IMG/VR virus record: IMGVR_UViG_3300050343_000214
Span: 1 to 64,000 of that record
Direction: 5' to 3' (one strand)
Origin: a virus
Length of the DNA stretch: 64,000 nt
In this document: positions 10,901 through 29,962 of the stretch, piece by piece
How positions within the stretch are numbered: position 1 is the first letter of the stretch
How the letters are laid out: each line of letters opens with the position of its first letter
The notes under the pieces: generated by a model
What the model saw: only the letters and a program-made list of their open reading frames with translations
The model's database searches: none
What the model was told of the DNA's origin: nothing
Program-made: the position numbers and the translations under genes

Positions 10901-11223
10901 CTATAGGAAACTCTAAGATGTCAAATACAACAACTACAGCTCCTCCTTCATCGTTTACAAATTCACTTACAGCAGCTGCAAACGGACAAGCTACTGATAC
11001 GACAAATGGCGTAACCTTCTTAGCCCCTGAAGGTGCTAAGTTAGACTACAATATTCCTTCTACAGTAGAAGATCTTGCTCTAAATACTAACGTCTTCATT
11101 GAAGGCAGCTACGTGTTTACCTTTACAGCCACCGCTGCTTTTGCGGGACAAGTTATTAGGTACACGCCAGTTTCTGGATCTCCTGTAATAGTTACTCTCG
11201 CAAACGGAAGGGTTGATGCATGA
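7954..11223 (+). CDS. Modular fibre/adhesin A: anchor, cupredoxin-like domain, Thr-rich linker, RCC1 propeller, C-terminal module
   Basis: N-terminal ADRVKET..GTG...EVG.G phage fibre anchor. About 7 RCC1 repeats (WG.N..GQLG...AG..H..AI). Poly-Thr tracts. Confidence 0.75.
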   Translation: MSDNLIIIADRVKETSLTVGTGDLALGGVVGGFSAFSDVYASGDALFYAVTDGTNYEVGSGIFHYDQPTSLNSLQRFPTRSSLANNGLVDFPQSTKEVYVTYPATHSVYIGSGVADLNFPQASGLAFWSSSNILNYDNDIVWDSDNHRLGILSPNPSYGIEVGGNGFESSVQASGFYVGSSGVVFPAQNNGDATYAGGNQLLHFEKNQTNSETGSDLVIELSGVVDQVILLKQQNKGTVFAGPASGCPGDCDPNYPEFRYLTLEDIPDLSSVYSSFSDLQAASGAVNTDSIARSGNLQSQIDDNLTSVNSDVSTVSGALTADVNAVKNTFDVVKSGGEYEFSNVGTSTDLNPNIFLQKGLTYYFNIDSAGTPFYVKTAPVVNTDDVFDDGVTGNGITSGTLTFVVPQDAPDILYYTASNISTASGIIYTADINLTSENLYDNLTSSDSQASDKIAIWDSSASEYKNISLESLLFAPSGNSYIKRETIASSSAVGDLGEITFDDTYAYFKTSTEWKRIKMLPFQTTTTTTTTSTTTTTTYPPSCTTLAPDCGNQTWRTITGVDVNGCPEYSSCATTTTTTAAPTTTTTTTTTTLSPSDYSNFIYTWGYNGNNQLGYRTSELFSLSPTKLDIGNVSELSAGDFHVLAIDIYGDLYSWGWNINGQVGDGTKVDAPVPVEIGSGKDWSSVAAGDHHSAAIDSTGALYTWGANNLGQLGNGNRATVLTPTRIAANVTWSKVFCGTAHTLAISSIGELYAWGSNEYGQVGNGTFTDVLTPTKVGVENNWTTVSAYMHTLALNSEGQCFAWGRNDAGQLGLHRLEGTSPLFENQNSPQQISKRDTGGNVILNAGTVDNWKAVAAGYQHSLAINNAGELYVCGNNEFRQIGRAGITQTIVPGVGTNPATTTITQEPVHTFTRLGLERNWNKVAAGNFHSIIISAAGDMYAMGRNNYGQLGDGTTDNKDVLTLISTDFDWDFPQAGYDFTTAIGNSKMSNTTTTAPPSSFTNSLTAAANGQATDTTNGVTFLAPEGAKLDYNIPSTVEDLALNTNVFIEGSYVFTFTATAAFAGQVIRYTPVSGSPVIVTLANGRVDA

Positions 11224-14200
11224 GTATTGCTATAACCGCTCGCCTACAGCTGGTTCAACACTTCGATACTACTTCTAGTATCACTATAGCCGATCTTTCT
11301 GCTGGCGTTCTTGACAATATCAAGCTGATTTACAGGTTGAGTGACACTGGTGGCTACCAAGCTTGGACTAAAGATGGTGGTAAGGCTTTTCCTGCATTAG
11401 AGTATGGAAAGGGGTATTTGTTTGTATCTGAAGATGATGCAACCTTTCCTTACACCGTAAATTCTGATACTGAAAATTTTCCAGCAGAAATTTCAATTTC
11501 AACATCTCCAGCAATTGTTCGATATGTTGGTGATAGCTTGGACTTAAGTGATACAGCAAATATTGCTAACTTTAGCCAGATCTACAAAATATCTAATGGT
11601 CAGTATTCCGCATGGAGTAAAGTTGGAGGTAAAGCCTTTACTACTTTAGACGACGGCGAAACCTATCTTGTAATTAGCGAAGACAGCGCTACTTTTCCAT
11701 ATACATTCTCCACGATTACCGCAGCAAATAATCTACATTTCCTACAAAACAGACATGTTAGAAAAGTAAATTCTAAAACTGGGACTTTAAAAGACTCTGT
11801 TTTTATTTCCACTAATACTTACTCAGCTATTCATGTGGATTCAGTTACTGGTATAATTTATGTGGGTGACAGTGGAGATTTAGTAGTTATTAAACGCGAT
11901 TCTTCTAAGGTTACTAGGAGAGTAAATTTAGCTCAATACGGTCTTTACAACCCAACTACAATCTTCACACAGGCTGGCAAGATATATGTTGGATCTATTC
12001 AGTCTAGTATTATTTGCGAATTAGATGAGACCACATACGACGTAGTGGCTTACGATGTTAACGACAGAGTGGGCGAACAGTTAGATTCCATAAGTGGCGT
12101 ATCTAGTTTTGTTCTCGCTGGAGACCAAATATATGTTTGTCCAGCTAGCAAGACTTACTCTGTGTTACTGGAGAACATTAAGACAATAGTTCCTGATGAC
12201 ACTCTTCCAAATTTCACTTCTGAAAATTCTACTGATGAAAATTTATATTTGTCTTTTTCTGATAATCTGAAATACACAGCAATTGTAGAGCCTTCTCCAC
12301 CACAAGATCCTCCGTCTGTGATACTTTCAGTATATGAAATCTCCTCTGGATCTCTAGTGAGGGTTGGAGACCCCAAGGTTATGAATAATAGAATGGGCAT
12401 AGAATTTGGTTCGATTGTAAAAATTTCTAATGATGGAACTACTGTATTAGTTGCGGCCCCTAAGCTTAATACTTCCAGCGTTAGCAATGGAGCTATCTTT
12501 GTTTATAATTATGTCGGAGGTGTTTGGTCTGAAACTGAAAACTTGCCCAGCGTTATAAATTACGAATTATTTCCTCGAAATATATCGCTATCTACTGATG
12601 GCTCATGGGTAGCGGCATCATCTTCTTTGCATAGTGTTAACAACTCAGTTGAAGAAAATCACGGAATAGTAAGAATTTATAAAAACACTTCCACAACTAG
12701 CGCTAGAACATACTCCTTGTCTAACACCATAGTGGGTTTAGATACAGATAGCAAACTAGGTGAAGAGATTTCTTTAAGCGGGTCTGGATCTGTATTGGCT
12801 GTTTCTAACGAATCCCGATCTTCAATAAATATTTATAAACTCAATAATAGCAATCCCTCGTCCCCTGTTTGGACTCTTCATTATACTATATCTCCACCAA
12901 GTGGTTATTCAGTCAATAATTTTGATTTAAATTATAATGGAAACTCTATAGCTGCTAGCTACTCTGGAGATTACGGTCCAATATACGTGTATGAAGACGA
13001 TGGCAGTTCTTGGGTTATAAATAAATCTGTTATATCTTCATCTTCTGCGCAATATAGAGCAGGAGGGCCAATATCTATAAAAGACGATGGTAATAAAGTA
13101 TGTACTATCTCACAAGTTAACGGTAAAAAGTATACAACTACCTATACTTATGATTCTTTAAATAACACTTGGGAACCCGTCTATAGCGATGAGTATCCAT
13201 CAAACCATGTTTTTCACACCATCTTTACAAATCCAGAAATAGATTCTTTTGCCCACGCCTACAAGGGTAGGATTACTTTTGTTTCATCGCCAAACTCCTC
13301 TCTTTTTAGTTCAATTTCTGTGGCAGGATTTCTGGTAAATAATTTTGGTACACAACGCATTATTGAACCTAAAACGTATGTAGAATGGAAAAAGGAACAG
13401 TAGCATGAGTTACAAGCAGACTATTAGAATACCACTCGAAAATAGGCCAATAGATTCATTTTACGATGAAGACTCTAATCTTGTATATACATTATCTTCT
13501 GACGGGCTAGTTAGTATTATTAATGTTTCTGAACACAAGGTTGTCAAGACAATAATCACTAGAGAAAATCCAGTTACTATGAACTATGATAAAATTAATA
13601 ATAATATATTAGTAGCTCATGCTTCTACATCGTCTACTGGTCTAGGGTTTTTAAGCGTTTTTAATGCTGATACGCAAAAAAGAAGGAGAGACATCTCTTT
13701 AGGATTAAACTGCGTTCCTTCTCAAATTTTAATTGATTATGATTCTCAACTATTACACATTATCTCCACTAATATTACTAATACGGCTAATCAAGATTTT
13801 CAATTCGTTAGGTCTTTTGACCTTTCTGATAATTATGCAGAAGTTCGTACAATTATAATGAAAGACTTTGGTGGTAGTAGGTACTCTAAATATGCTGACA
13901 TACTAAGATCATCCACAGTGGTAACAACGACAACCACCATGCACCCTTTAGCTTCTCAAGATTTGTATGTGGTGCATTCACAAAACTCTAGTATAGATAA
14001 GATGGATACTATCAACGGCACGTTTAGTCAAATTAAATCTTTAGAATCAGGCGCATTTCCACAAAAGATAGCTTTAAACACTTCTTCTAATTTAGCGTTC
14101 ATTACCAATTACAATAAGCCCTATATATCGGTATTAGATATTGCCAATCCTAGCAATTCTATAGCAAATGTACCAGCTGAAAAAGGCGTTTGTGGCATTA

Positions 14201-15216
14201 AGGTTGACTCGTCTAATAATCTTTTATACTATATAAACAACCTTTCTGATGAATTCGTTTGTTATAATTATGCTAACTCAACATTTGTTTCTACTGTAAG
14301 GCTAAAACATTTGCCCACAGATTTAGCCATAGATTTTGTGACGAACAAAGCCTATGTATTAAACAATATACAGCGTAATATGTATGAGATCAATCTTTCA
14401 GACTTCACATACGAAACTTATAATTTTAATTTTGCTCCATTTGCTATGTTTTTAGACTCTAAATCGCAAAATATTTACATATCCGACTTTGATAATGGCG
14501 GTGTATATACTTTTGACAGATTCTCTAAGCAGTATAAAATAATAGATTTTCCTTTTGGCAAGATATTAAATTTATCATATGATTCTAACGCCAATATGTT
14601 ATATTGTATATCAGAATTTGGAAACATCTTTGGCTATCACACGGGGACTAACAAGATAATTGTAAAGTTTATTAATACTGATAATATAATTGATGGGGCC
14701 AACACGGCTAGTGGCCCAACATCTTTAGTTGTAGACAGCGTGGCTAAGTTACTTTATGCGTCAAATTCTTTGGGTAATACGATATCAATATACAATTTGA
14801 AGGACCACACATTTATGAAAAATATTTCTTCAAGCCAGTTTCCAGATGGTTTGCTTTTACATAATAGTCCTACAACGACTACCACGATAGCTCCCACTAC
14901 GGCTACATTAACCATTGGAAGTTCTTCTAATTTTATAGCTGATAACTATGTGGTATTTTATGGTAACGCTGGAGATGAAATAGAATATGAAGAGATTGCC
15001 ACCGTCTCTGATACTAATAGTATGTCTGAAATTATTATCTCAAGGGGAGGCTCTGCATTAAGTAGAGTTACTTTACCAACAGAATATGTAACTGGCGATA
15101 AGCCCTTTAATATTACAATTGCGTCTGGAGCAGACGCTGGAACTTATAACAATCTTAAATTTGGTGATGGGTCGCTGTCCTCTGGGGGCAATTACAGGAG
15201 TATAACTTTATCATGA
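11220..15216 (+). CDS. Modular adhesin B (~1330 aa; ORFs 11220..13403 and 13405..15216 joined): 2 N-modules, YVTN-type propeller with nested FG-GAP-like propeller, second YVTN propeller, C-module
   Basis: Removing one A from the A5 run at 13389-13393 gives VEWKRNSSMSYKQTIRI, matching the earlier blade VVIKRDSSKVTRRVNL, and completes a 4+3 blade propeller. Confidence 0.65.
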
Positions 15217-17639
15217 TTACCCAATATACACAAATATCATTTTACATAGGTCAAAGCACCACACCAATATCTGGACTTAGCAACGTGTCTAATGTTGACA
15301 AGATTTATGACATTGATTCCAACGGGAATTATATAGGCTATTTAGATGACTTTTCAAGCCTGTCTTTCCTTCAGGGGCTAACTGATCTGCAACCTAATAC
15401 TGGATACATCATACACTCAAAGTCTTCAGCCACTCTTCCTTATCAGTTATTTCCAGACGAGACAGAAATTACTACAGACACAGAACTCGCAACTGTTTCT
15501 GGAGTTCTACAGGGCGGCATTGATAATGTAAATTTATTTTCTAACGCTGTTTTTCAAACGTTAATGTCTGCTTCTGGCATTTTAGACGGAGAGATTACGG
15601 TAGTTTCTGGAGACATGAGTTTTGTTTCCGGGGAGTTGATTACTGCGTCTGGCGCTCTTCGAGATTCTATAGACACTCTTGACACTTCAGTAACTGATCT
15701 GGATACTAAATACTTAAATGCGTCTGGTTATCTACAATCTCAGGTAACAAGTAATTCTGGAAACATTGATATCGTATCTGGAATTATGAATACTGATATA
15801 GCTGCGCTCAATGTTGATGTAACAAATTTAGAGAACGATCTTGACTCAGTTTCTGGAGAAATGATTAACAGGGTAGCGGCTTCTGGTCAAGCGGCTCTGG
15901 ATCATTCCGCAACTGTTTCTGGATTATTAGTTGCTTCCTCTGGCAACTTAAGCAATAGAATTTCTGACAATACATCTAATATTGCTTTTGTGTCTGGAGA
16001 AATTATTACTGCTTCTGGCGCTCTCAAAGATCAAATAGATAATATAACTGTAGATTTAGCACCAACAGAAGGCCGCATAGACTTTGTTTCTGGTGAGTTG
16101 ATTACAGCATCTGGAGCCTTGAGAGCAGATATCACCACTGCTGAGTCTGACATAGATTTTGTTTCAGGTGAACTTATCACAGCTTCTGGAGCCTTGAGGG
16201 CAGATGTAGATTTAAAAGCTACGGAGTTAAATTCCGTTGCTAGGTCTGGCAATCTGCAATCTCAGATTACCACTGCTTCTGGTGCTTTACAGGCTGACAT
16301 CGCTACTGCTTCTGGCGCACTGAATGCAGATATGATTGCGAGTGGGACTAGCCTACAATCTCAAATCACCGTTATTGAAAATGACACAGCGATTTTGTCA
16401 ATTTTGCAGGACATAGATGATATTATTGGCGGCACTAATGCTACTGATCTAAATGCTTTTCTGACATCTGTTAACAGCGCTAGCGCATTTGTTTCTGGAG
16501 AAATCATCACGGCCTCTGGAGCTTTGCGAACTGACGTAGACTTGAAAGCTACCGAGGTAGACTCTGTTGCTAGGTCGGGGAACCTACAAGGTCAAATCAC
16601 CACTGCTTCTGGTGCTTTGCAAGCAGACATTGATGCCCTATCCAGCTTAGACCTCGAAGAACTAGGAAACTTGGCTGGTATATTGGGAAGCAGTGCTGAC
16701 TTGGCAGCTTTAATATCTGGTATGGAATCAGACATAGCGACTAACGTATCAGATATAGATTTTGTTTCTGGCGAACTGATTACCGCTTCCGGTGCATTGA
16801 GGTCAGACATTAACGATGTTGATACAGATTTAACATCGCTTTCTGGTCAAATGCTTTCCCTAACTGACGCAGCGGCGCAAAGCTTAAATTTTAATGTTAC
16901 AGTATTTGATGATAACGGTGTTAATAAATATAGGTTTAATGGATGTGGCACAACAGATAGTAATAACCCTGATCTATATCTACATAAAGGTCTCACTTAC
17001 TACCTTAACATAGATGCAGCTACCCATCCGTTTTGGATCAAAACAGAATCTGGTGCAAGTACAAATAACGCTCAAGCAGGGGTTATTAATAATGGCACAG
17101 GAAACGGCACTATAATATTTACTGTACCGCAGGATGCGCCGAGTGTTTTATATTACAATTGTCAGTATCATGAACTTATGGCTGGAAAGATTTACACAGC
17201 TGTCGATAGTGTTCCATCTGTTAACGGCGGGTTAGCAGACACATACTCACCTTTTGGGACTACAACCGTGCCTCCTATTGCTACTACTACTGCTGCTCCA
17301 ACCTTTGATAACGAAGTTACTACAGCTGGTGCTGGGGTTGTGATGGATAATATTTTTGCTACACAGCCAATATCATTTAACACTATTGGTGCAGGATACA
17401 TATTAAGATGGAATTCTCACAATTTATCAAGTATACCAGAAATCTGGGCTACATCTGCTAGAAGGCAAAACATTTACAAAAACGGTACAATTATTGCCTC
17501 TATAGACTTTTATGAACTGGCCTTTTTAAACCAATCTGATAATCCATCATATGAATTTGAACTGCCCGATGGAACCGTTTATTCTGTTAATTGGGGCGCT
17601 GGAACTCAAAATGGTAATGATTACGACGTTAATCTTTAA
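15213..17639 (+). CDS. Fibre C: N-module, SG-rich coiled-coil shaft, cupredoxin-like domain, C-module
   Basis: ATGA overlap start. Six FVSGE[LI]ITASGAL repeats. THPF...YYNCQYHELM motif. Confidence 0.75.
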   Translation: MITQYTQISFYIGQSTTPISGLSNVSNVDKIYDIDSNGNYIGYLDDFSSLSFLQGLTDLQPNTGYIIHSKSSATLPYQLFPDETEITTDTELATVSGVLQGGIDNVNLFSNAVFQTLMSASGILDGEITVVSGDMSFVSGELITASGALRDSIDTLDTSVTDLDTKYLNASGYLQSQVTSNSGNIDIVSGIMNTDIAALNVDVTNLENDLDSVSGEMINRVAASGQAALDHSATVSGLLVASSGNLSNRISDNTSNIAFVSGEIITASGALKDQIDNITVDLAPTEGRIDFVSGELITASGALRADITTAESDIDFVSGELITASGALRADVDLKATELNSVARSGNLQSQITTASGALQADIATASGALNADMIASGTSLQSQITVIENDTAILSILQDIDDIIGGTNATDLNAFLTSVNSASAFVSGEIITASGALRTDVDLKATEVDSVARSGNLQGQITTASGALQADIDALSSLDLEELGNLAGILGSSADLAALISGMESDIATNVSDIDFVSGELITASGALRSDINDVDTDLTSLSGQMLSLTDAAAQSLNFNVTVFDDNGVNKYRFNGCGTTDSNNPDLYLHKGLTYYLNIDAATHPFWIKTESGASTNNAQAGVINNGTGNGTIIFTVPQDAPSVLYYNCQYHELMAGKIYTAVDSVPSVNGGLADTYSPFGTTTVPPIATTTAAPTFDNEVTTAGAGVVMDNIFATQPISFNTIGAGYILRWNSHNLSSIPEIWATSARRQNIYKNGTIIASIDFYELAFLNQSDNPSYEFELPDGTVYSVNWGAGTQNGNDYDVNL
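15616..16810 (+). repeat. Degenerate coding repeats FVSGE[LI]ITASGAL (x6) and VARSGNLQxQITTASGALQAD (x2)
   Basis: Visible in protein and DNA, for example tttgtttctggtgagttgattacagcatctggagccttgag and its variants. Confidence 0.85.
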
Positions 17640-17659
17640 AATAACAAAGGAACCATGCT

Positions 17660-20600
17660 GTGCAAATTACTCAAAGATCTCAATTAATTACTTATAATGA
17701 ATCTTCAGATAGTCTTATTAATAGTCTAGCTGGGTATGCCAATGTAGATAAGATCATAACCTTTTTATCGAATGGTCAATCATCTATTTGGAGAAGCGGC
17801 GCTGGTTTGAACGGTTTTTATAGTTTAGTGTCAGCTGAAGGATATTTGATTATATCTAAGTCTTCAGTAACTCTTCCTTATGAGCTTTATCCGTCTGATG
17901 ACGATATTCCAGATAGCGTGATAATTGATCAAAAGTTTCAAATTGCTACATATTGCGGCCCCGACTTTGATCTTGTTAACAATCAGTTTACCACCGCCCC
18001 ACCAACAACAACACCCGCTCCAACAACAGCCCCACCAACAACAACCGCTGCTCCTTCGTCGTGGAGTCAGGTTGGAAGCACTATAAGCAGAGCCAATACT
18101 AGCTTTGCTGTTAGTGTAGACATGACTGAAAGTTATGGCAATAGACGTATTATAGTTGGTGAACGTTATTACAGCGCTTCAGCTGGGGGCGATAACGGTC
18201 GGGTACGAATATATAAAATTAATAGCGACTCAGTAGATGAGCTTAAAACTTTTGATGGCGGTCAAAGTCAGTTTATAGGAGAGAATGTTGCTATATCTGA
18301 AGATGGGTCGAGTGCAGTTTGGGCTATGGGTGGTAATGAATCTTTTAGAAACCTGACAATTGTAGAAAATTTATTTAATAGCAGCGAAAGCACAACTATT
18401 GTTAACAATGTAGTTGACCAATCCAGTACTAACATCATGCTAGACAACGGCATCAATTTGCCCGGAAAAAGATTGTCATACAGAAATGGTAGAGTTATAT
18501 TTGGCGATCCACGAGATAACTCAACCCGAGGCAGTGTCAAGTTATTATCAAAGTCTCAAGGTCAGTGGGGATCGACAAGTGTTGATCCACCTAATGCTGA
18601 TGCTTCAGCTAATAGAAGTCCTTCTGATGTGTTTGGCGCTAACGTCTCTCAAATGACGGGTGGGTTTATTGTATCAGCTCCCAACGCTGACTTCTTAACC
18701 AACTCAACTAACTTTGAAGGCTTTGATGCTGGCGCTGCATACGCCTACGACTACAATCTAAGTACTGTTAGAATTATTGATGACGACAATGAATTAAATG
18801 ATAATTTTGGTAAAATCAATGATTCCAAGGGAGAGTTTGCGGTACTCGGTGGAAACACAGAGATAAGATGCTATAGAGATCTTAGGGGTGCTGCGGCATC
18901 TTCACAGCTGCAAACATATCATCGCGTTAGAGAAATAATAACACTAAATAGCATAAGAAGTCTAGATTCTGATATTTTGGGCAGCGACTCTATTTCATTT
19001 GCAGATGCTTGCATAAGCTCTACTGGGGAAACGTTGGGGGTCTTGGTTTTCAATTCTTCTCAGCGAAGACTTACTGGGTACATATATAAAGCATCTGGTG
19101 GTAGTAGAAACCCTTATGATAATAGCGCCACATGGACTTTTGATAGAAAAATTTATGATCAAGATCAAATTGAGTATAATGAACCTGCTTTTAATATCAA
19201 GTGTGATGGTAGCGGTGCGTATGTAGTCATCTCCGCTGGCGAAGCTGCGATCAGCTCTCCAGATGATAAAACTGGATACCTTTATGTTTATAGAGATAGT
19301 TCTTTCGAGCCTGAAATTAGAATTAGGCGAAAAGCTAGCGATGGATCTACTAGCACATCGTATTACGAAAGTGCGAACTCTCACATTTACGCCAAAGTTT
19401 CAAAAGTAACTAACGACACAACACTTACTTTTGCAGGTGCTATAGCAACTACTGGTGGAGCCGTTACGTACCAGTGGCAGAAGAGAAATACGTCAGGCTC
19501 TTGGTATAACATTGATGGTGCTAATGGTGCAACACTAACGCCAGACTCTTCGTATAGTAACAATAACTCTCTTTACAGAGTACAGCTGACTGCCAACAAT
19601 TGTGAGCCTACTTTTAGTGATATAATTAGGCTGGAACTAAATCCTCTCTACTTGGTTGGCACAAGTATTACGGATTCTCTTTCTTCTGCTAATATACTCA
19701 CCGGGGCTGTTCAGCTAAGTTTAACTGGGGCTGACGGGACTAGAGCTTTGAAGAGAACTACGAACCGCAATCTTGTTCATGCTAACACTAATGCTACTTC
19801 CAATAATGCTTCGTCTCCTCATAGAATTTTAACACAAGCTATGTCTTTGGAGATAGATGAAACCATTTTGCATGAAGATTATAAAAATATCGTCACCAAG
19901 CCATACCTTAGCGTTCCGTTGGTTGATAACATAGATGCCTCCGTAGAGTGTCCTCGACGAGTTACGAATGGTTCTCAGTTGGTAGATAGCCTTGAGTATA
20001 ACTATGCTTTATCTGTCAAGGTTGATAATTCTAGTATGGGCGATGAACATTTCTTAGTTCAAAGTCAAATTTCTCCACCAAGATTACCTTTTTTCCAACT
20101 AGTAGCAGGAGCGGATACTGGAGGCGAAGGTTTTTCTAAATCAGCTACTGAGCGGTCTAATTCAGAGTTCTATGTTCTTACTAAGCCTTCTCACAATAAT
20201 AATGCAGGTAAAGTTGCTATCAGTCAGATGTTGGCATTGCAACAGCACCGTTTACATGGCACTGTAGGAAATATTCCCGCAGCTGTAGCCGCCTGTAATG
20301 TAAATACTGCTACTGTTTACTTACCCGGTGGTGAACCATATATTGGAACATATAATGGTGTACAAAATCAAGGCAATGCAACTACCGTTAATAAACAGAT
20401 AAAAGTAAATAACTCTACTCAACCTTTTAATAGTTACGGCGCATTTCCAATTACGTCTGAAGACGCGCTAGGCTATACTGTAAGCTTTAACTTGACAAGT
20501 GAAAATGCAGACTTCTCCAGTGACCTTACAGCTGCATATGAAAATTTACATTCTAATAATGCTTTCAGACAAGTTCATACTTTAGTTTCTAATAATAGTC

Positions 20601-23193
20601 AAGACGTTTTTGGTAAAAGTGTTGCATTCTGTAACATGGGTAAGGTATTAGCTATTGGAGCGCCAAGGGTAGACGCAACTGCAAGTGTAATTAAGAATAC
20701 ATATATATTTGAATCAGATTATAACTCTTATGGTGACATTAATTTCCATGCTTCAACAAAGATGCAATCAGATGATCCTCATTTTGGAAAATATGTTTCT
20801 TGTTTGACTGTTGGTTCTAGAAGCTACGTCGCTGTAGCTGGAAACTCAGAGCTACGAATTGCTATTAAAGACTATTCTCTGTTTGGTAACAATGCTTGGA
20901 ACACTGTTGTCTCTGACCTAAACGGCTATGGCTCACACAGGCATTGATCTCACTCTTGCTGGAGAGTTTGATAGCTTGTTTGGAACTTCATCTGGCGATG
21001 CTAATAATGAAAATTTAAAAGTTTATTTGTACGGGACAGACAAGCAGGGGGCGTACCAGATGTTTTGATATCACTAGCTTTAAGAGCGCTGGAAGTTCAA
21101 GCCTAGCCTCCGAAAACGTGGTTGGAGATGTAATTCCTGCAAAGCCTTATGGCGCTGGCGCTGGAAGTACAGTAAAAGCATCTACCTACTATGATCACAT
21201 AAACAATAAATTTGTAAATAGAATTATACGAACCGCAGTGTCTAATACCACTTCTGTTTACTTTGAAGATTCTAACAATCCTTCTTTGGGAGCAAAGAAT
21301 GGTCTAGTTTCTGTGTACGATTTTGATAGCGTTCAAAACAAGTGGGTCCAATATCTGCCAGACATCTCTGACTCTAGCCTTACTGCTGACAAGCAGTTTG
21401 GTACAAATAATGGTAGAAATCTTGGCAGATCCGTCGCGCATCATTATCATACATCTAGAGTGTCCGATCAAACCACAGATGATTTTGTTCGCTACAGTAT
21501 TCTCGCTACTTCCTTAAATTCAGATACATCTGGAATAAGCGCTATGCGTAGAGTCACAGACAAATTAGTTACTACGACCCCAGCGCCCACCACGACTCCA
21601 GCGCCGACTACTATCCCGCCAGAACCTTCTGCGGACATACCTAGATATACTAATACGGCTGGTATGGTCCCTGTAAACTATGCTTCTGACAACATTGGCC
21701 CTCCTGTTTACGATAATAATATTTCTTCTTCAGAAACTCCTAACGATTTAATGCACTTGCCATTATCTTCTATTGTTACATCTGAGGATGGTTACACATC
21801 TGTCATGTGGGACGATAGGTCTAACTATGTAAATATTGATGACAGGAGGACGTATATACTCACTGGATTTCCGAACATTACAGAATATGAGCCAGCTAAT
21901 ATCCAATCTTCTATAGATCCTATTTCTGATGAGTATGAAGTACATACTGAACTGACGGTTGATAGTAACCATAAGAGGAGGGTAGTTGATTGCGCTGTTT
22001 CTGATGGCGGTGAACACATTGCAGTCACTATAGCTCAAACTCCTGCTGGTAAGTCTGCTGGCTTGGAAAAATCTTATGTTTTACTTTATCAAAGAAATCA
22101 AGAAAAACTTGGGGATGGAGCTGATACAGCTCAATTATTAAACAAATTTGTTTATTCTTTACTTAAAACTGCCACACAGTCTATAAACAATTCTTTAGAC
22201 ACAAGTGGGCAAAATCAATCTAATTACATAGATGGTGTAGATTTTAGTGAATACTCATTAGGATACAAAGATGCTCCTACTCCCGGTGAAACAAACCTTA
22301 ACTATCAGAACCGAAGACACAACAGACATAAAGTGATTTGTGTGCTTGTATCTAAACCTTTAAATGATTCTTCTGGGAATTCCTCTACAGCTATGTCTGC
22401 TTACTTGTTTGGCCTTAAGCTTGCTAATCAAGCTTTGACATATCGTGTTCCGGCGGGCTTGGTGGATGGTAAGGATGACGCACAGCAGCTTTATAAGGTT
22501 GACATTCCATATAATAGACTCATGGATGAATCTCTGTTTATAAATGGATCAAGTAGAAACGATTTCATTAGAACTGCTCGCCAACAATCTATGCATATAC
22601 CTAGAATTGTAGATAGGTATTTTGTTAAGAATGATGATGGTGATAGATATGCTCCAGATGATCGAATGTCTGCTGTGGCAGCGCCAACTGGTTACGATGC
22701 TATGGATACGGTCTCAAATGTCATTGGTGATTATACTCATCAAAAATACGACATATATATTTACAGGCTTAATAGGTCTCAACCCGGAACTAACGTTTTT
22801 AATACTCATCACTACGATGTGTTGTCTTGTATAGTTTCTATGAATCAATATGACACAAAGATTCGTACTTATAATACTAATTCTGATACTAGCTTTAAAT
22901 TTAATGGCTCTTCAGTGAATTTTCGTATAAGTCAGACAAATCAGACTGATCAAAACGAAAGCCACCAGTGGAGAACAGGAAAGGTCTCAAGAACTGGCTT
23001 CCTTCCTATTAGCGCAATAGATCAAGAGTATACTGGTAGAAGTGGTCTAACTAGATCAGACTTTGGTGGAGAATCAGACCCTTCAACACCAACTGTTCCT
23101 AATAACAATACTACTGATGCTCCTACTGCAACTACCACCACTGCATACGTAGCGCCGGACAACAACAACAATAATAATGGAGGAGGATATTAA
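17660..23193 (+). CDS. Modular adhesin D (~1840 aa; ORFs 17660..20947 and 21118..23193 joined): N-module plus orphan half-module, FG-GAP-like propellers, Ig-like domain
   Basis: GTG start with SD AAAGGA. Two extra bases (~20920 CTAAACG, ~21065 ATGTTTTGAT) restore ...DLTAMAHTGIDLTLAGEF...YQMFDITSFKSAG... Ig motif VTYQWQK...LYRV. Confidence 0.65.
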
Positions 23194-26100
23194 TGCCTAC
23201 GCCAAAAAGCAATTTGATCAAAATAGTTAAGCTATCCGAGAATGCTTCTATACTTGAGCAGAAAAGCACTATTGCTACAGATAGGGGACATCAGTATAAC
23301 ATGCATGTTTCTAATGATGGCGCTAGACTTTTAACCCAAGATGCTCCCCAATCTCTTCAAGACCAAGGCGCTAGTGATTGGAGCGGTGGAGGATTTAACG
23401 ATTGGTATAATAAATTAAATTCAACGTCTTGGGATCAACCAAAATCTGATTTGCGAGAGTTTTATAATACTACTCAGAACGTTTATGGATATGCTGCTAT
23501 AGATAATACCAAACAAGTTTTCGCTGAACAAGTAGTTAATTCACATTCTAATTCTACAATTGATATAAGCAACAGCGCCATTACTTGTCTTGACAAATCA
23601 GACCCTGTTGTTTCTACTCCGGTTATTAGACTAGGGCCACTAAGCACTTCGGACCAATTAAGCGATGTACATGGTTTTATGCATCGTGAACCACTTAAGT
23701 CAGGCAGCGATTATGAGTCGGCATTTGAGCATGTGTACAACTATTCCTCTGTTACTGACGCGCAGTTAGATAGATGGCGCTTACACGTACCTGCTGTGGG
23801 TGGCGGCGCCGTAAGAAGTCAATTTGACCGCTCTTCAGGTTTGGTTATAGAAGAAGGATCATCTACAATCGGCTTAGAAGAACATGAAACAGCATTTGAC
23901 TTTTCAGAAGAACGGCTAGGTTCAAGATCAACTCAATCATTACCAAGCGATCTCATGGTTCTTCACAATTATCATTTAAAATCTGATAGAGATTCTGTTA
24001 GCACCCCCACCGCCACCGATACGGCTGGACGCATCCATTTGCCAGATTTTGAAGAAAATACCAACAAGACAGGGTATGACGATGGCGCTGCGATGCTTGG
24101 AGAATTCTCAATAGCACGAAGTCGATACTGCGATCCTGCATCCAACGGCGGGAATACATTTTTAGATTTTTCTGTTAGCCTTCGACTACAGAGTGTTACT
24201 CAGTCCGCAGGAGTACCTGCCATGAGAGACATATACTGTTATAGCACTCCGTTTTCAACCTTTGGATATGGGTTCTATGAATTTCCAAACTCGCCCACGA
24301 ACAATTATGTCACCACCCATGATATGAAATTTTCTAAAATACAACCTGCGTACATGAGATTTGGAGGGATATCCCTAAGATCTTCTACTGGTGATATTAA
24401 TAAAATGGATCAAGTAGTTTTAAAATCTAATGAATGTATATCATTAGCTGGTTCTAGTGTTGGCACTAATGGCCTTTCTTATAATAATTCTGATGTTGCA
24501 GATATAGTTATATCAATTCCAGAAATGTCAACAGAAAAATGGTATTTCCTTCACGTATTTTCTGATGTAGAAAAACTTACCGTTGCTATAGACGGAGAAG
24601 TTGTTGCCACTAGAGAGCATGAAACTTCCTTAACTTCACAACATATCTATACTGTTGGCGATTCTGCAAGTGCGGCAAAGTACTCTAAAGATCCCAACGC
24701 ATACCGACCATACATAAACTACAGTAATACGCGGGCTAATGTTATGGGACTAACACCTAGTCATGGCTGTCCTCCTGTTGCAGCTGGTAGATCCCTTTTT
24801 GCTAAATATCCCATTCAAAATGATTACAATACTTACGACGTTACTACCCATCAGTTAGTAATTTTTACCACCAGTGCAACACCTAGATTTATTTATAACG
24901 AGCGTCCCGACGAAATATTTCTTATGAAAAATTTAGCTCCACACTTGTCGGACCCTAATAAGATAAGTACGAGTTTGTTGAGTGCCATAGGGAATATTAT
25001 TCCTCACTTTAAAACACTAACACCTGCAACACTTGGTCTTTCCTTGCGGTTTTCGACTAATTCTACTGCGGCGTCTGCTATGAACATCTGGACCGGACGA
25101 GACAGCATGGTTCTCAACAAATCTGAAGCTTGGTTGCTACATGCTGATCATGATTCTATAACGGACTACCTATCTTGGGATCAACCATCATACGCCTTTG
25201 GCAGGTCCAATACATCAGAAAAGATGCTAGAACATGATCCGGGTAAAGCTGGTATAAATTCTCTCTTGTCTGTTTATTCGTCTAGCTGGAACGGATTGTT
25301 AAACTATAATGATTCACACAACGCAACCTATGGTTCTTCACGACATTATATACATTCAACGGTTGATATTAGTACAAACACCACCACCAGCCGAATGCGT
25401 CAAGATTCTAGCGAGCAAATGCTGTACGGCATATCTCCAACTCATTTAATAATAGCTCCAAATAGAAGGTATGGTCAAGCTGTTATAATGTCTAATGAAA
25501 AAAACCAAACTGTTTTCTATACTCCTTTTTGTGGACACATGCATTCTTTTAGTTTATCAAGATTAGATGGTCGAAAGATTATTAACAGTAAGGAGTTCGC
25601 TAAAGCTAAACATGCACATTTCTCTAAGATGAATGATACAAGAAAAAAGAACAACAGTTTCTTTGCTACTGATTCAGAAAATTTAAAAGATCGAGTGAAT
25701 TTATATGGAAGCACTAAGCCAACGCAGGAAGGTCTTTGGCCTACAACCGACAGCAGCTTTTCTAGCACTACCGCTATAGAAGATTATGTAAATACTGGAT
25801 CTGATCTTTCTAGTAACCAAGCATTCCATGTTGGAGAAGCGCCAATAGTGGGTGATAGAAGCAGAACCCAATTCAATAAACACAACTCCCTATCAGATGG
25901 CAATGTTAGATATTACACAGAGCAATATGTTTCGACAGACTATAATAGTGATTTGAATGATTTAATAGTTGCTCCTTTTTCAGACTACAAAACGGCTACT
26001 ACAGATAACATTGTTACTCAAGGCGTGAGACATGATGTGTTTTTTAATTACAAGAAAACCGCCCTTTCTTCTATGTACAGTGTTGGCGTTGTTGGGGCAG

Positions 26101-26231
26101 ATAATTTTGGTCAAGCAGGAGTTGGTTCCTCAGAACACGCTCTTGGGGATACTGGAATATATAATTCTGTAACGTCTGTTGGCAAAAACAATTATGGACA
26201 GCTGGGTGACGGTTCTACAAGCACAACTTAA
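23193..26231 (+). CDS. Adhesin E (1012 aa) with LamG/ConA-like segment and C-terminal RCC1 half-repeats
   Basis: SD GGAGG with TAATG coupling. KWYFLHVFSD..LTVAIDGEVV (LamG-like). Ends GADNFGQAG...GKNNYGQLGDG. Confidence 0.65.
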   Translation: MPTPKSNLIKIVKLSENASILEQKSTIATDRGHQYNMHVSNDGARLLTQDAPQSLQDQGASDWSGGGFNDWYNKLNSTSWDQPKSDLREFYNTTQNVYGYAAIDNTKQVFAEQVVNSHSNSTIDISNSAITCLDKSDPVVSTPVIRLGPLSTSDQLSDVHGFMHREPLKSGSDYESAFEHVYNYSSVTDAQLDRWRLHVPAVGGGAVRSQFDRSSGLVIEEGSSTIGLEEHETAFDFSEERLGSRSTQSLPSDLMVLHNYHLKSDRDSVSTPTATDTAGRIHLPDFEENTNKTGYDDGAAMLGEFSIARSRYCDPASNGGNTFLDFSVSLRLQSVTQSAGVPAMRDIYCYSTPFSTFGYGFYEFPNSPTNNYVTTHDMKFSKIQPAYMRFGGISLRSSTGDINKMDQVVLKSNECISLAGSSVGTNGLSYNNSDVADIVISIPEMSTEKWYFLHVFSDVEKLTVAIDGEVVATREHETSLTSQHIYTVGDSASAAKYSKDPNAYRPYINYSNTRANVMGLTPSHGCPPVAAGRSLFAKYPIQNDYNTYDVTTHQLVIFTTSATPRFIYNERPDEIFLMKNLAPHLSDPNKISTSLLSAIGNIIPHFKTLTPATLGLSLRFSTNSTAASAMNIWTGRDSMVLNKSEAWLLHADHDSITDYLSWDQPSYAFGRSNTSEKMLEHDPGKAGINSLLSVYSSSWNGLLNYNDSHNATYGSSRHYIHSTVDISTNTTTSRMRQDSSEQMLYGISPTHLIIAPNRRYGQAVIMSNEKNQTVFYTPFCGHMHSFSLSRLDGRKIINSKEFAKAKHAHFSKMNDTRKKNNSFFATDSENLKDRVNLYGSTKPTQEGLWPTTDSSFSSTTAIEDYVNTGSDLSSNQAFHVGEAPIVGDRSRTQFNKHNSLSDGNVRYYTEQYVSTDYNSDLNDLIVAPFSDYKTATTDNIVTQGVRHDVFFNYKKTALSSMYSVGVVGADNFGQAGVGSSEHALGDTGIYNSVTSVGKNNYGQLGDGSTSTT

Positions 26232-26257
26232 TATAAGAATTTAACAAGGAGTTAGAA

Positions 26258-27736
26258 ATGTCTTTAAAAAATGCACTACTTCCAGATAGCGTTGTCGATG
26301 CAGCGTGTGGTAATGATCACTCTTTAGCTGTAACATCTGGTGGCGAATTATATTCTTGGGGTAACAATGGCTTTGGTCAACTAGGTCATGGAGATCGGAC
26401 TCATAGATCAAGCCCTACTAGGGTTGGTTCAAGAACAGATTGGGTCAGAGTTTTTGCTGGTACAAATCATTCTGTAGCTCAAACCTCTGATGGAAAGTTT
26501 TATGGGTTTGGATTAAATGTATCGAAACAACTTGGGGAAGGTCTCAGTACGACAGCTCAATATGTACAGACCCCAGAACTTTTGCTTTCAGAGCCTACCA
26601 ATTTGTCGAGTACAGAAGCTAGTGATTTGCAGACAATGAGGGGAAATATTAACAGTCTCAGCACTAATGTTTTTTGTGGTCCTAATTGCACTATTTTTAT
26701 TACTTCCAGCACTGTATTTTGCAACGCTCTGTACCTCAGTGCTTCGTATAAAAACAACAACGTCTTCTTGTTGGGAGCTAATCCATCTTTTCTTAATAAA
26801 GTTGTTCAATACAGCTTACCACGCGGCATTGGCGCAATACCAGATGGAACTACTGATTATTCTATAAGTGATAACGGAATTTTATTAAATAGATACAATA
26901 TGTTAGCAATGAACGGTATGGTTAGGTTATGGTCAGATCAATCTTGGAGTGGATACAATAATTATTATAAGAGCAGCTCCCTTGCAAACCTTGGTTATAA
27001 TGCTAAGTTGAGTGAGAGATGGTCTTATACATTTGCCTTTGCTAATCATTTTGTTACAAGAGATTTAAGTTACGGTGGAGAAGCGTTTTACGCCAACATG
27101 GCTGACTTCATGGTTGGGACAAACGCGAATTCGGCTAGCAGTCTTACCATAAGTAGAAATTTATTCACTCATGAAAAATCTTCAGATTATACATACGCCG
27201 CTCAAGATGCTTCCGTAAGTTTAGATGATCATACTGTTTTTGCAATAAGTTCTAATAACGATTTGTTGGCTTCAGTAGCACCAAGAAGATTCATATCTTA
27301 TTCAAATTCATATTTCGACACCTACACTAATTATAATTACATCTCCCAATTGGGAGAGGCTCCATCGGGACCAGACAACACGGGGAGCTATCGCATTAGC
27401 CTTATAAACGATGGGGGCAAAAGTAATCCATATTATGTAAGCAATAATCGCCCTGAGAGTTCACCCCTTTTCAATTCTTCTGGAGGAGGCATGGATGGAA
27501 CTGGAGACCTTCAGCCTTATGGCAATGTGAAGTGTAGCACAGTTTTCAACGGTAGAGATAGAATATATGCATTGGATAATAACGGTATTCTTCTTTCTGC
27601 TGGCAAGGATGATAATTATCTTTTAGGTAGAGATGTTTCTACGTCTACTCCAGCTAATGAGCTACACCCTACAGCTATTCGTAATGTAAAAAGAGTCGTA
27701 TCGGGTCGTCACCATTCCCTTTTCCTACAGAACTAA
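26258..27736 (+). CDS. RCC1-repeat beta-propeller protein F (starts mid-blade)
   Basis: SD AAGGAG. VVDAACGNDHSLAV..GELYSWGNNGFGQLG. Ends VSGRHHSLFL. Confidence 0.75.
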   Translation: MSLKNALLPDSVVDAACGNDHSLAVTSGGELYSWGNNGFGQLGHGDRTHRSSPTRVGSRTDWVRVFAGTNHSVAQTSDGKFYGFGLNVSKQLGEGLSTTAQYVQTPELLLSEPTNLSSTEASDLQTMRGNINSLSTNVFCGPNCTIFITSSTVFCNALYLSASYKNNNVFLLGANPSFLNKVVQYSLPRGIGAIPDGTTDYSISDNGILLNRYNMLAMNGMVRLWSDQSWSGYNNYYKSSSLANLGYNAKLSERWSYTFAFANHFVTRDLSYGGEAFYANMADFMVGTNANSASSLTISRNLFTHEKSSDYTYAAQDASVSLDDHTVFAISSNNDLLASVAPRRFISYSNSYFDTYTNYNYISQLGEAPSGPDNTGSYRISLINDGGKSNPYYVSNNRPESSPLFNSSGGGMDGTGDLQPYGNVKCSTVFNGRDRIYALDNNGILLSAGKDDNYLLGRDVSTSTPANELHPTAIRNVKRVVSGRHHSLFLQN

Positions 27737-27739
27737 AAT

Positions 27740-29962
27740 ATGTTTCCAGAACGTTTTGATAAAATAATACAGTTTTTGCCTAATGGTCAATCTGTGACTT
27801 ACGTTAAGGGCGCTGGTCTTCAGGGAATTACTTACTTGAGGAACGGAGAAACGTATGTCTTTATTAGTGCTAATGATGATGACCACATTGTTTGTGATGG
27901 GGTTGTGGCTACAACGACGACTACTACTACGTCAACTACGACCACAACAACTACAACTACAACTACAACAGCCGCTCCTACCACTTCACTTTCTTTCAGA
28001 AATATTGTAGGCGATAACGGTTGCAATGGTTCGCTTAGTGAATTTCCTAAATGTATTCCTTGTTCACCCACAAGCATTAGCCATGTTGTTAAAACTAAAG
28101 AAGAAGATGGCGTTATTACATTTAAAGTCTCTGTCGGCGTAACTAATCCTAATACTAGTCAACTTCAGTATATATGGGAGTATAAATCCTATACCACAGA
28201 ATGTTCCAGTGGTGATTGGACCCGCTTTGGCACTTCAAATTCCAGCGCCAATCAATACGGAGTTACGTCTGTACCCACTGTAGACTTTAATTATGACTGT
28301 ATTATTGGTCAGTCCTTGAGGATAGAAGTAAGATGTACTGCTCTTATGGGTTGGGAAAACACTCGTACCATTTCAAATAGTTACTATTACAAATGCGATA
28401 ACGAGCTAGATACATCTGAACTTGTTAATAAGTTTGATTTATTAATTAGTACACCAGAAAACGCATCAGAATCTTTCCCCACAGGCTTTACGACAATTAG
28501 TAGAGGTTTTGTGTTAAGCGATAGTAAGGAATACGACTATGATACTGAACAATGTGAATATGATGACTATGTTGAAGGCGGTTATTTACTCTTAAACCAA
28601 CCATCTGACATGTTAGGAGATCGTAATCTTCTTCAATTACCGTTTTCTGAATCAACTAAAGAAGCTATAAAACAAATAGGTCAAGTCGAATGGCTTATAA
28701 GAAGACCCACCGATACGCCTCTTGCAAGTGATAGCGCATCTACTCTAAAAACATTACCAAACAACCAGAGATCGTTCCAAACCTTATCGTCTACTACAGC
28801 GCTCAATAATGATAACGATCCGACTACTTTAAATTTGGCATCTATTAATTTTCCTAGTTTGTATACAGGTTATTACGAAATAGTGGCTAAAGTTCGACTT
28901 GGCACTGAAACGTGCTACTCCAAAATTGTTCCAGTTTTTCTCAATAATTATCTCAGTTCACGGATAAGTATGTATGACACAAGCCGTCCTGATTTAATTT
29001 CTTTAGGTTATCACGGTCATCAAAAACATTGCGCTTACACGGGGAATTATCCTACTGTCGGCGCGCCTAGTATAACAGCAGACGTTGCTATTATTAATGG
29101 TACGGCACCCAGCGCTGGTTTGCCAAGTAGTGATACACAAAATGTTTATGTAGCATCAAGAATAGGAGACAGGAGTTATGGCGCTTTGGAGCATCTATTT
29201 CCTATAAGCTCAGTTTATGTTGACGGAAATTATGTTACGAGAAAAAATTTGAAAGTTGTGTATAACCAAAAAAATAATTCTTTGTCGTATAATAATTCGT
29301 ATTTTATACATGAGGTGTCGGATTCGGAAAATACGAATGTGCTTGCATCTGTTCAGTCGTTAGTAACTTCAGTCTGGGGATTTTATGATCCTCAAAATCC
29401 TATCTGTGCGTTTGGAAGATATTACCCTCACCCTACGATAAGACCTTGGAATTATGGTGTTTTAGCTCCACTTAAACGTGGCTCTTACTATAGTTCCAGC
29501 GGGTACGGTTCTTATCCGGCACAGATATCTGACTTAACTGGTGGTAACACCTTAAAAATAAATTTAAGAACAGCGTTCACTTACAATGACGACGATAAAC
29601 CAGAAGCTCACGATTTAGTTGTTGTTCCACACATGCAGTATAGTAATGATGGGGGTGGTACTTGGAGAAATGCCGGGGGTCTGCAATCGGTTGTCAAGAA
29701 AAACAATAAATTTTGGCAGGCAACTTTTCGTAATCCTTATTCTTATGGTGCTAGTTATTGGGATATTTTTGGATGGCGTAGTGGCACTCTGATCCGTTAC
29801 ACCCCCGTAGGTTATGCAGGAGTTCTCGGAGGATCTTATGATAAAGATATATACAACGCTGGTGGCTATCCGGGTCTTGCGATTAGGCAGTTAACAGATC
29901 CATCTATTCCTATTAATTCTAGGGTTCATTCTGTATTTTCACAGCCATTTTCTTTACCATAG
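27740..29962 (+). CDS. Adhesin G: truncated N-module, poly-Thr linker, Cys-containing Ig-like domains
   Basis: N-terminus FDKIIQFLPNGQS..GAGLQG..L..GETY is homologous to the N-module. LQYIWEY...IEVRC Ig-like pattern. No clear SD; starts 3 nt after the in-frame TAA of 26258. Confidence 0.65.
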   Translation: MFPERFDKIIQFLPNGQSVTYVKGAGLQGITYLRNGETYVFISANDDDHIVCDGVVATTTTTTTSTTTTTTTTTTTTAAPTTSLSFRNIVGDNGCNGSLSEFPKCIPCSPTSISHVVKTKEEDGVITFKVSVGVTNPNTSQLQYIWEYKSYTTECSSGDWTRFGTSNSSANQYGVTSVPTVDFNYDCIIGQSLRIEVRCTALMGWENTRTISNSYYYKCDNELDTSELVNKFDLLISTPENASESFPTGFTTISRGFVLSDSKEYDYDTEQCEYDDYVEGGYLLLNQPSDMLGDRNLLQLPFSESTKEAIKQIGQVEWLIRRPTDTPLASDSASTLKTLPNNQRSFQTLSSTTALNNDNDPTTLNLASINFPSLYTGYYEIVAKVRLGTETCYSKIVPVFLNNYLSSRISMYDTSRPDLISLGYHGHQKHCAYTGNYPTVGAPSITADVAIINGTAPSAGLPSSDTQNVYVASRIGDRSYGALEHLFPISSVYVDGNYVTRKNLKVVYNQKNNSLSYNNSYFIHEVSDSENTNVLASVQSLVTSVWGFYDPQNPICAFGRYYPHPTIRPWNYGVLAPLKRGSYYSSSGYGSYPAQISDLTGGNTLKINLRTAFTYNDDDKPEAHDLVVVPHMQYSNDGGGTWRNAGGLQSVVKKNNKFWQATFRNPYSYGASYWDIFGWRSGTLIRYTPVGYAGVLGGSYDKDIYNAGGYPGLAIRQLTDPSIPINSRVHSVFSQPFSLP

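Follow-up and report, generated by a model that had tools for sequence, protein, structure and literature searches.

In the chaperone-usher pili (Fim, Pap), an incomplete beta fold is completed by a strand that belongs to another polypeptide, and this donor-strand complementation or exchange gives a very stable, non-covalent joint that builds an extracellular fibre. The engineered SpyTag/SpyCatcher pair is a split domain, of which a short strand and the remainder reassociate and are covalently locked by an isopeptide bond. Branched receptor-binding proteins (RBPs) have been described in phages: in the Klebsiella podophages KP32/K11/KP34, the branching domain of RBP1 pairs with a conserved docking peptide of RBP2 (PMC13352976), the Ackermannviridae carry a branched complex of tail spike proteins (TSPs) (PMC11414711), and DT57C has the branched receptor-binding proteins LtfA and LtfB (PMC4728585). 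Here, we analyse a fibre locus in the IMG/VR virus record IMGVR_UViG_3300050343_000214, a 105.8-kb sequence estimated to be 68% complete; the window, i.e., the whole stretch of DNA that was analysed, is its first 64 kb. Two genes of this locus, 17660 (the donor, a giant fibre) and 27740 (the acceptor), encode complementary pieces of a head module that paralogues hold intact, and we judge it somewhat better than an even chance that the orphan tail of the giant fibre docks the incomplete 27740 head by donor-strand complementation. The principle shared with the chaperone-usher pili would be that of an incomplete fold completed by a strand of another chain.

The module in question comprises ~80 amino acids (aa) and is common to the N-termini of several consecutive fibre and baseplate-periphery proteins of this phage. 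It was described by a profile of 75 positions, seeded from the modules of the window and iterated with hmmsearch over 80 related proteins, which finds it twice in 11220, once in 15213 and at aa 3-77 of 17660. In the AlphaFold2 model of 11220 aa 1-172 (predicted local distance difference test, pLDDT, 94.3), each module has six strands, namely a pair of short ones at the N-terminus, which a loop containing a short helix separates from the core of four strands. The features on which the comparison rests are listed below in window coordinates.

17660-23193, plus strand: donor fibre gene, called as two open reading frames (ORFs), 17660-20947 and 21118-23193, and a single gene in relatives (comparison with L006 and L007, see below).
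17660-17899, plus strand: complete head module 1 of the donor, aa 1-80 (profile positions 2-75, E 2.5e-26; AlphaFold2 pLDDT about 79-95).
17900-17989, plus strand: orphan tail of the donor, aa 81-110, equivalent to the first two strands of a second module (profile positions 1-21).
17990-18061, plus strand: Thr/Pro-rich linker after the tail (from the translation).
27740-27910, plus strand: acceptor head of 27740, aa 1-57, a core-only module without the first two strands (profile positions 27-68).
27911-27985, plus strand: Thr-rich linker after the acceptor head.
11232-11708, plus strand: reference, the two intact tandem modules of gene 11220, aa 5-80 and 93-163 (module profile).
15213-15452, plus strand: reference, the single intact module of gene 15213, aa 1-80 (module profile).

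The two heads are truncated in a complementary manner. Behind its whole module, 17660 has a partial match at aa 88-108 that covers profile positions 1-21 only, and 27740 aa 5-46 matches positions 27-68 only (E 7.5e-12), its four-strand core (aa ~2-47) beginning straight after the initial Met and being followed by Cys52 and the Thr linker. The same holds across the relatives, in which the tails cover positions 1-21 and the acceptors positions 24/27 to 68/73. The acceptors therefore lack strands that their intact homologues possess, since the 27740 orthologues and a second group of core-only proteins with a Hint domain (see below) both start at positions 24-27, within five residues of the Met. 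Given the strand order in the 11220 model and this profile coverage, the break lies in the loop that follows strand 2. A profile built from 11 orphan tails also aligns with that of 40 intact second modules over columns 1-20 (hhalign probability 95%, E 3e-8). The original prediction, which had been made from the sequence of the window alone, was accurate in its description of 11220 and of the halves in 17660 and 27740, and the seamless join that it had proposed is borne out, as the tail joined to the 27740 N-terminus aligns with intact modules along their whole length, from end to end.

When 1.84 billion representatives were searched exhaustively with the profile, 71 matches to the module family were obtained, most of which have two intact tandem modules, some a single one, and about a dozen a module plus tail. 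In the 12 donor proteins found in this way, C99, Y98, T97, Q94, V87, P84 and L105 are invariant, and the tail of 17660 carries the motif ..QIATYCG..FDL.. at aa ~84-106. The tail is in fact the best-conserved segment of the head among 11 donors, with a mean identity of 57.5% as compared with 34.5% for the core of module 1, which makes it unlike a vestigial remnant. It is followed by a linker or by immunoglobulin (Ig)-like repeats in most donors, and by a module core in none. On the acceptor side, five orthologues of 27740 (57-92% identity) all begin with MFPERFDK and all keep ..IVCDGVV with its Cys, and the mean pairwise identity is 91% over the first 57 residues as against 62% over the C-terminal 510 aa.

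Two related loci give the genomic context, namely L006 (MDTC01055409.1, from a metagenome collection; ENA protein P0014) and L007, a distant TARA scaffold. The order of donor, RCC1 protein and acceptor is kept in L007, and in L006 as far as the contig reaches. In L007, which is 49% identical in the head, module, tail and linker are kept in a 2497-aa donor, and the gene in the place of 27740 has the head region alone in common with it, showing a core-only start and then ..VCDG. Conservation of the orphan strand and of the Cys pair in relatives, by which the original prediction was to be judged, thus extends to this distant locus, and as judged from these sequences the split arrangement is old and conserved.

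The two cysteines provide a second line of evidence. The codons of C99 (TGC, 17954-17956) and C52 (TGT, 27893-27895) were confirmed, as was the earlier remark that intact paralogues in the window lack these residues, all four intact modules there being without Cys at both positions. The first Cys is present in all donors and the second in all core-only heads. Among 105 intact cis modules, Cys occurs at the strand-2 Y-x-G position in 6, five of which have a second Cys just after the last strand, as compared with 9 of the 99 in which the first Cys is missing (Fisher one-sided p=1e-4); the five double-Cys modules stem from about three independent lineages. This co-variation within single chains argues that the two positions adjoin in the folded module.

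Modelling of the heads points in the same direction. When the donor head is modelled alone with AlphaFold2, module 1 is kept and the tail (aa 81-101) is a coil with pLDDT 68-77, whereas the homologous stretch is folded into strands in an intact 11220 module, with pLDDT values above 90. A complex of 17660 aa 1-112 with 27740 aa 1-60, each supplied with its own alignment (A3 and A4), reached a score of 0.67, and the best of three controls reached 0.06. The 0.67 mark was attained by 58 of 80 solved complexes and by 2 of 110 mismatched pairs, a calibration that is rough only, as the complex was run with our own alignments. At least 89% of the contacts are common to the runs, and the partner has a pLDDT of at least 65. 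Tail residues 93-98 are modelled antiparallel to acceptor residues 36-42, and the predicted interface involves donor residues 86-106 plus parts of module 1, and acceptor residues 2-4, 9-16, 30-43 and 49-53, so that C99 and C52 both lie inside it. The gain in confidence is mutual: the acceptor falls from pLDDT 65-70 with its cognate partner to 42 with unrelated chain 1, and the donor from 79-83 to 57-63 with unrelated partners. The complex model supports binding, although it does not show it.

From the observed truncations, their conservation and the co-variation of the cysteines, we infer a docking mechanism of the following kind. The donor would present two strands ahead of its flexible Thr/Pro linker, and these orphan strands would insert into the incomplete core of 27740. 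The two-module head that 11220 holds in cis would in this way be rebuilt in trans by 17660 and 27740, and the giant fibre would thereby bear the docked 27740 fibre as a branch. In such a joint, C99 and C52 would be adjacent, and an inter-chain disulfide could form once the virion leaves the reducing cytoplasm. The original prediction had likewise suggested that the halves re-form the module in trans, possibly with a disulfide; what it has gained is computational support, i.e., the conservation, the Cys co-variation and the controls of the complex model.

As compared with the chaperone-usher pili, the acceptor here lacks two N-terminal strands, whereas pilins lack the C-terminal G strand, and the donor strands stand after a complete module and before a linker rather than at the extreme N-terminus. 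There is here no chaperone or usher, a Cys lock is possible, assembly is that of a phage in the cytoplasm, and the fold has no clear match in the PDB. The pilin, chaperone and usher families gave no match in Pfam or PHROGs, and the fold searches gave no match to an Ig-type pilin, a result that is inconclusive alone. The best hits of the tandem-module model against the PDB were unconvincing, with E 0.06 in Foldseek and Z 4.3 in VIA-align (HPr, root-mean-square deviation 3.0, 69 aligned), and the ESM Atlas returned only clusters named 'hypothetical protein'. The system is not a member of the chaperone-usher pilin family. The branched RBP systems are similar in that a second fibre or spike is hung on the first through a short conserved N-terminal element and the distal parts are free to vary; here, donors from 459 aa (in the IMG/VR locus L009) to about 2500 aa (L007) have one common head. 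The polarity is reversed, however, as the primary fibre gives the peptide-like strands and the secondary fibre gives the domain, and both parts are halves of one domain that is found intact in paralogues. No Pfam or PHROGs family linked the heads to the branched RBP systems, including the KP32 type. In contrast to SpyTag/SpyCatcher, this would be a natural system, predicted by computation, and its lock would be a disulfide. The literature was searched for donor-strand mechanisms in the tail fibres of phages, and no relevant work was found. The locus thus likely encodes a docking device of the donor-strand type, in which a known principle is distinctive in splitting a domain that is intact in paralogues.

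Several observations weigh against this pairing of 17660 with 27740. The pass of the complex model may mirror the knowledge that the model has of intact tandem modules, in which case it would report likeness to the halves and not binding, and the four-strand core might be stable alone. In two further IMG/VR loci, L008 and L009, synteny extends through the fibre array and the donors (2347 and 459 aa) keep the tail with TYCG, yet the slot before the conserved 161/216/312-aa genes holds no 27740-like gene, and no acceptor is found in these records of 28.6 kb and 37.8 kb, which are only 18% and 24% complete. The genome of the window itself also encodes a second core-only head, with which a Hint-domain protein begins (about 96.6-98.9 kb, minus strand); the feature line of this protein is as follows.

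G000:C1:96571-98883 (L011/L012), minus strand, outside the window: Hint-domain, Cys-rich protein with a core-only head followed by ..PYTNCDDG (profile positions 24-73 from residue 2).

This gene lies ~70 kb from 27740, and its first ~60 codons are spread over three frames by two frameshifts in this record; its relative in L010 is intact, and further relatives of the Hint-type acceptor are P0081, P0015, P0061 and probably P0063. Since one orphan tail only and two core-only acceptors are detectable in the 105.8 kb, the pairing is not one to one, and in L010 the Hint-type acceptor stands without a donor within 10 kb.

These points could be taken to mean that there is no complementation in trans at all, the tail acting within the donor, by packing on module 1, by fibre oligomerisation or through donor-donor disulfides, and the core-only heads being autonomous mini-domains that attach elsewhere. 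Tail-bearing donors without an acceptor in the L008 and L009 fragments, the ratio of one donor to two acceptors in the genome of the window, and a tail that still has a pLDDT around 70 in the donor-alone model would all fit. We nevertheless regard this explanation as unlikely, because the truncations complement each other exactly and fall in one and the same loop, intact modules show co-variation of the Cys pair at these two positions, the complex model passes its controls with a mutual gain in pLDDT, and the tail of the donor alone has no module-like strands.

A different reading of the same observations retains the mechanism and changes the partner, in that the Hint-domain protein would be the physiological acceptor of the 17660 tail, replacing 27740 or alternating with it. 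The Hint protein has a core-only start too, its core shares 24 of 40 residues with that of 27740, and its distance from the fibre array could explain donors without an adjacent acceptor, as in L008 and L009. In both genomes of known context (the window and L007), however, a 27740-type acceptor lies two genes downstream of the donor, and the Hint-type acceptor was not seen in the partial L008 and L009 records either, so that we consider the exchange of partners improbable. Besides 27740, this second acceptor may use the same donor: a donor and its acceptor do not have to be adjacent, and the tail could pair with 27740, with the Hint protein or with the two of them.

A further group of explanations places the split in the DNA or in the assembly. 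The original prediction had noted an in-phase, imperfect direct repeat of 9 nucleotides at the break points, AATCAGTTT and AATATGTTT, and had proposed either that an ancestral gene had received a block of three genes or that an excisable block gives long and short fibre variants. The repeat is real, with a match at 7 of 9 positions, but it is not above chance, as 42% of random pairs of 30-nucleotide segments from this window share a 9-mer that matches at 7 or more positions. The insertion scenario finds no support, because 17660 and 21118 form one ORF in L006 and 17660, 21118 and 23193 form one ORF in L007; the stretch between the halves consists for the most part of the body of the donor itself, together with one RCC1 gene. 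A contiguous allele was found neither among the five 27740 orthologues, within the length range searched, nor in two related loci, which together with the chance-level repeat leaves the excisable block without support. As 17660/21118 and the Hint gene are both frameshifted in this record, one could suppose that 17989 is normally connected with 27746 by way of an excisable or invertible block, or that the split is an assembly or frameshift artefact. We hold this to be very improbable, as the same split recurs in independent assemblies, i.e., an NCBI protein, Logan proteins, ENA protein P0014, the TARA scaffold and the IMG/VR donors.

The frameshifts in the donor gene can be located by means of its L006 orthologue, P0019, which is a single ORF and aligns to frames 2, 3 and 1 of the window successively. 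Accordingly, 17660 and 21118 belong to a single gene that is interrupted by two +1 shifts, the first at about 20933 and the second at about 21040-21065; these shifts may be assembly errors or real lesions. A run of five G (about 21046) contains or adjoins the second shift, and the middle 44 codons are in the third frame. The Hint gene of the same record is likewise frameshifted. In L007, the orthologues of 17660, 21118 and 23193 are fused in one protein of 2497 aa. The two genes that follow the called donor ORFs are as follows.

23193-26231, plus strand: large gene for a fibre body, with RCC1 half-repeats at its end; in L007 it belongs to the donor polypeptide.
26258-27736, plus strand: RCC1-repeat protein between donor and acceptor (Pfam RCC1 matches).

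The genes 26258 and 27740 share a frame, with a TAA and one codon between them (27734-27742). Readthrough of this stop codon from 26258 into 27740 was considered and is unlikely, as the shared frame recurs in the L006 orthologues (8552-8560) and is not conserved in L007; it is probably a coincidence of tight gene packing. The RCC1 propeller itself seems to be divided, between the C-terminus of 23193, with two half-repeats, and the N-terminus of 26258 (window 26068-26400), and this division is kept in L006 and L007 (8400-8700, at the C-terminus of the 2497-aa fusion). It is possible that the divided propeller is a second case of fold complementation in the same set of proteins.

It can be speculated that these elements form a natural 'tag and catcher' code, with a two-strand tag on the giant fibre and four-strand catchers on interchangeable 27740-type and Hint-domain proteins, disulfide-locked after release, and that, together with the divided RCC1 propeller, fold complementation is a general rule of fibre wiring. 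This broader proposal is tentative, and we would give it clearly less credence than the docking of 27740 by the 17660 tail. If donor-strand docking is true, it would show how very large and highly variable fibre proteins of abundant uncultured marine phages join, and it would extend donor-strand complementation to a phage, with a joint that may be covalently locked. The pair of about 25 aa and about 50 aa would then also be a small natural split domain and a candidate protein-ligation tool. For the reading of genomes, an orphan 'TYCG' tail and a core-only N-terminus would mark partners that are possibly far apart on the genome.

The bodies behind nearly identical donor heads vary hugely, from 2347 aa in L008 (10001-17044) to 459 aa in L009 (10001-11380). 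The body of the L008 donor is made of Ig-like repeats, 'WTQRTLP' repeats and FG-GAP-like repeats, and the 27740 orthologue of L006 (8558-12013) has a ~400-aa FG-GAP-like insertion directly after the acceptor head. The variation of the bodies looks like cassette exchange distal to the docking heads.

The cores of the modules were also compared with each other over 40 residues. That of 27740 shares 20/40 with module 1 of 17660 (27752-27871 and 17741-17860, respectively) and only 18/40 with its own L007 orthologue, fewer than the number given above for the Hint-type core, and P0063 shares 22/40 with module 1 of L007 (L007 1140-1290). Module cores are thus closer within a lineage than between orthologues, which suggests that the heads are subject to gene conversion or co-evolution.

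The searches for relatives beyond these loci were largely negative. A megablast of 17000-29000 and a tblastn of the 17660 protein against deposited phages gave no match and no near relative, and viral contigs searched with single proteins and with alignment A1 for related loci yielded nothing. Alignment A4 retrieved the L010 record again and nothing more, and alignment A2 found no relative in genome contigs. The homologue search for the donor head at near lengths returned only the head itself, and that for the acceptor head at shorter lengths returned one fragment only.

The array to which donor and acceptor belong is a series of large genes at positions 7954-29962, all on the plus strand, whose products contain RCC1 repeats, FG-GAP-like repeats and Thr/Pro linkers (Pfam, PHROGs). 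The body of 15213 matches phrog_677 (PHROG 677), 'baseplate wedge tail fiber protein connector', and genes upstream of the array match tail-fibre and tail-spike PHROGs. Based on these repeats, linkers and PHROG matches, we take the region for the module that encodes the fibres and the baseplate periphery of a tailed phage, marine and uncultured. The genes 7954, 13405 and 15213 each end in a ~90-aa domain after a Thr-rich linker (10950-11223, 14900-15216 and 17330-17639, respectively), directly preceding the N-terminal head module of the next gene, and these C-terminal domains could be further docking partners, in this case for intact heads.

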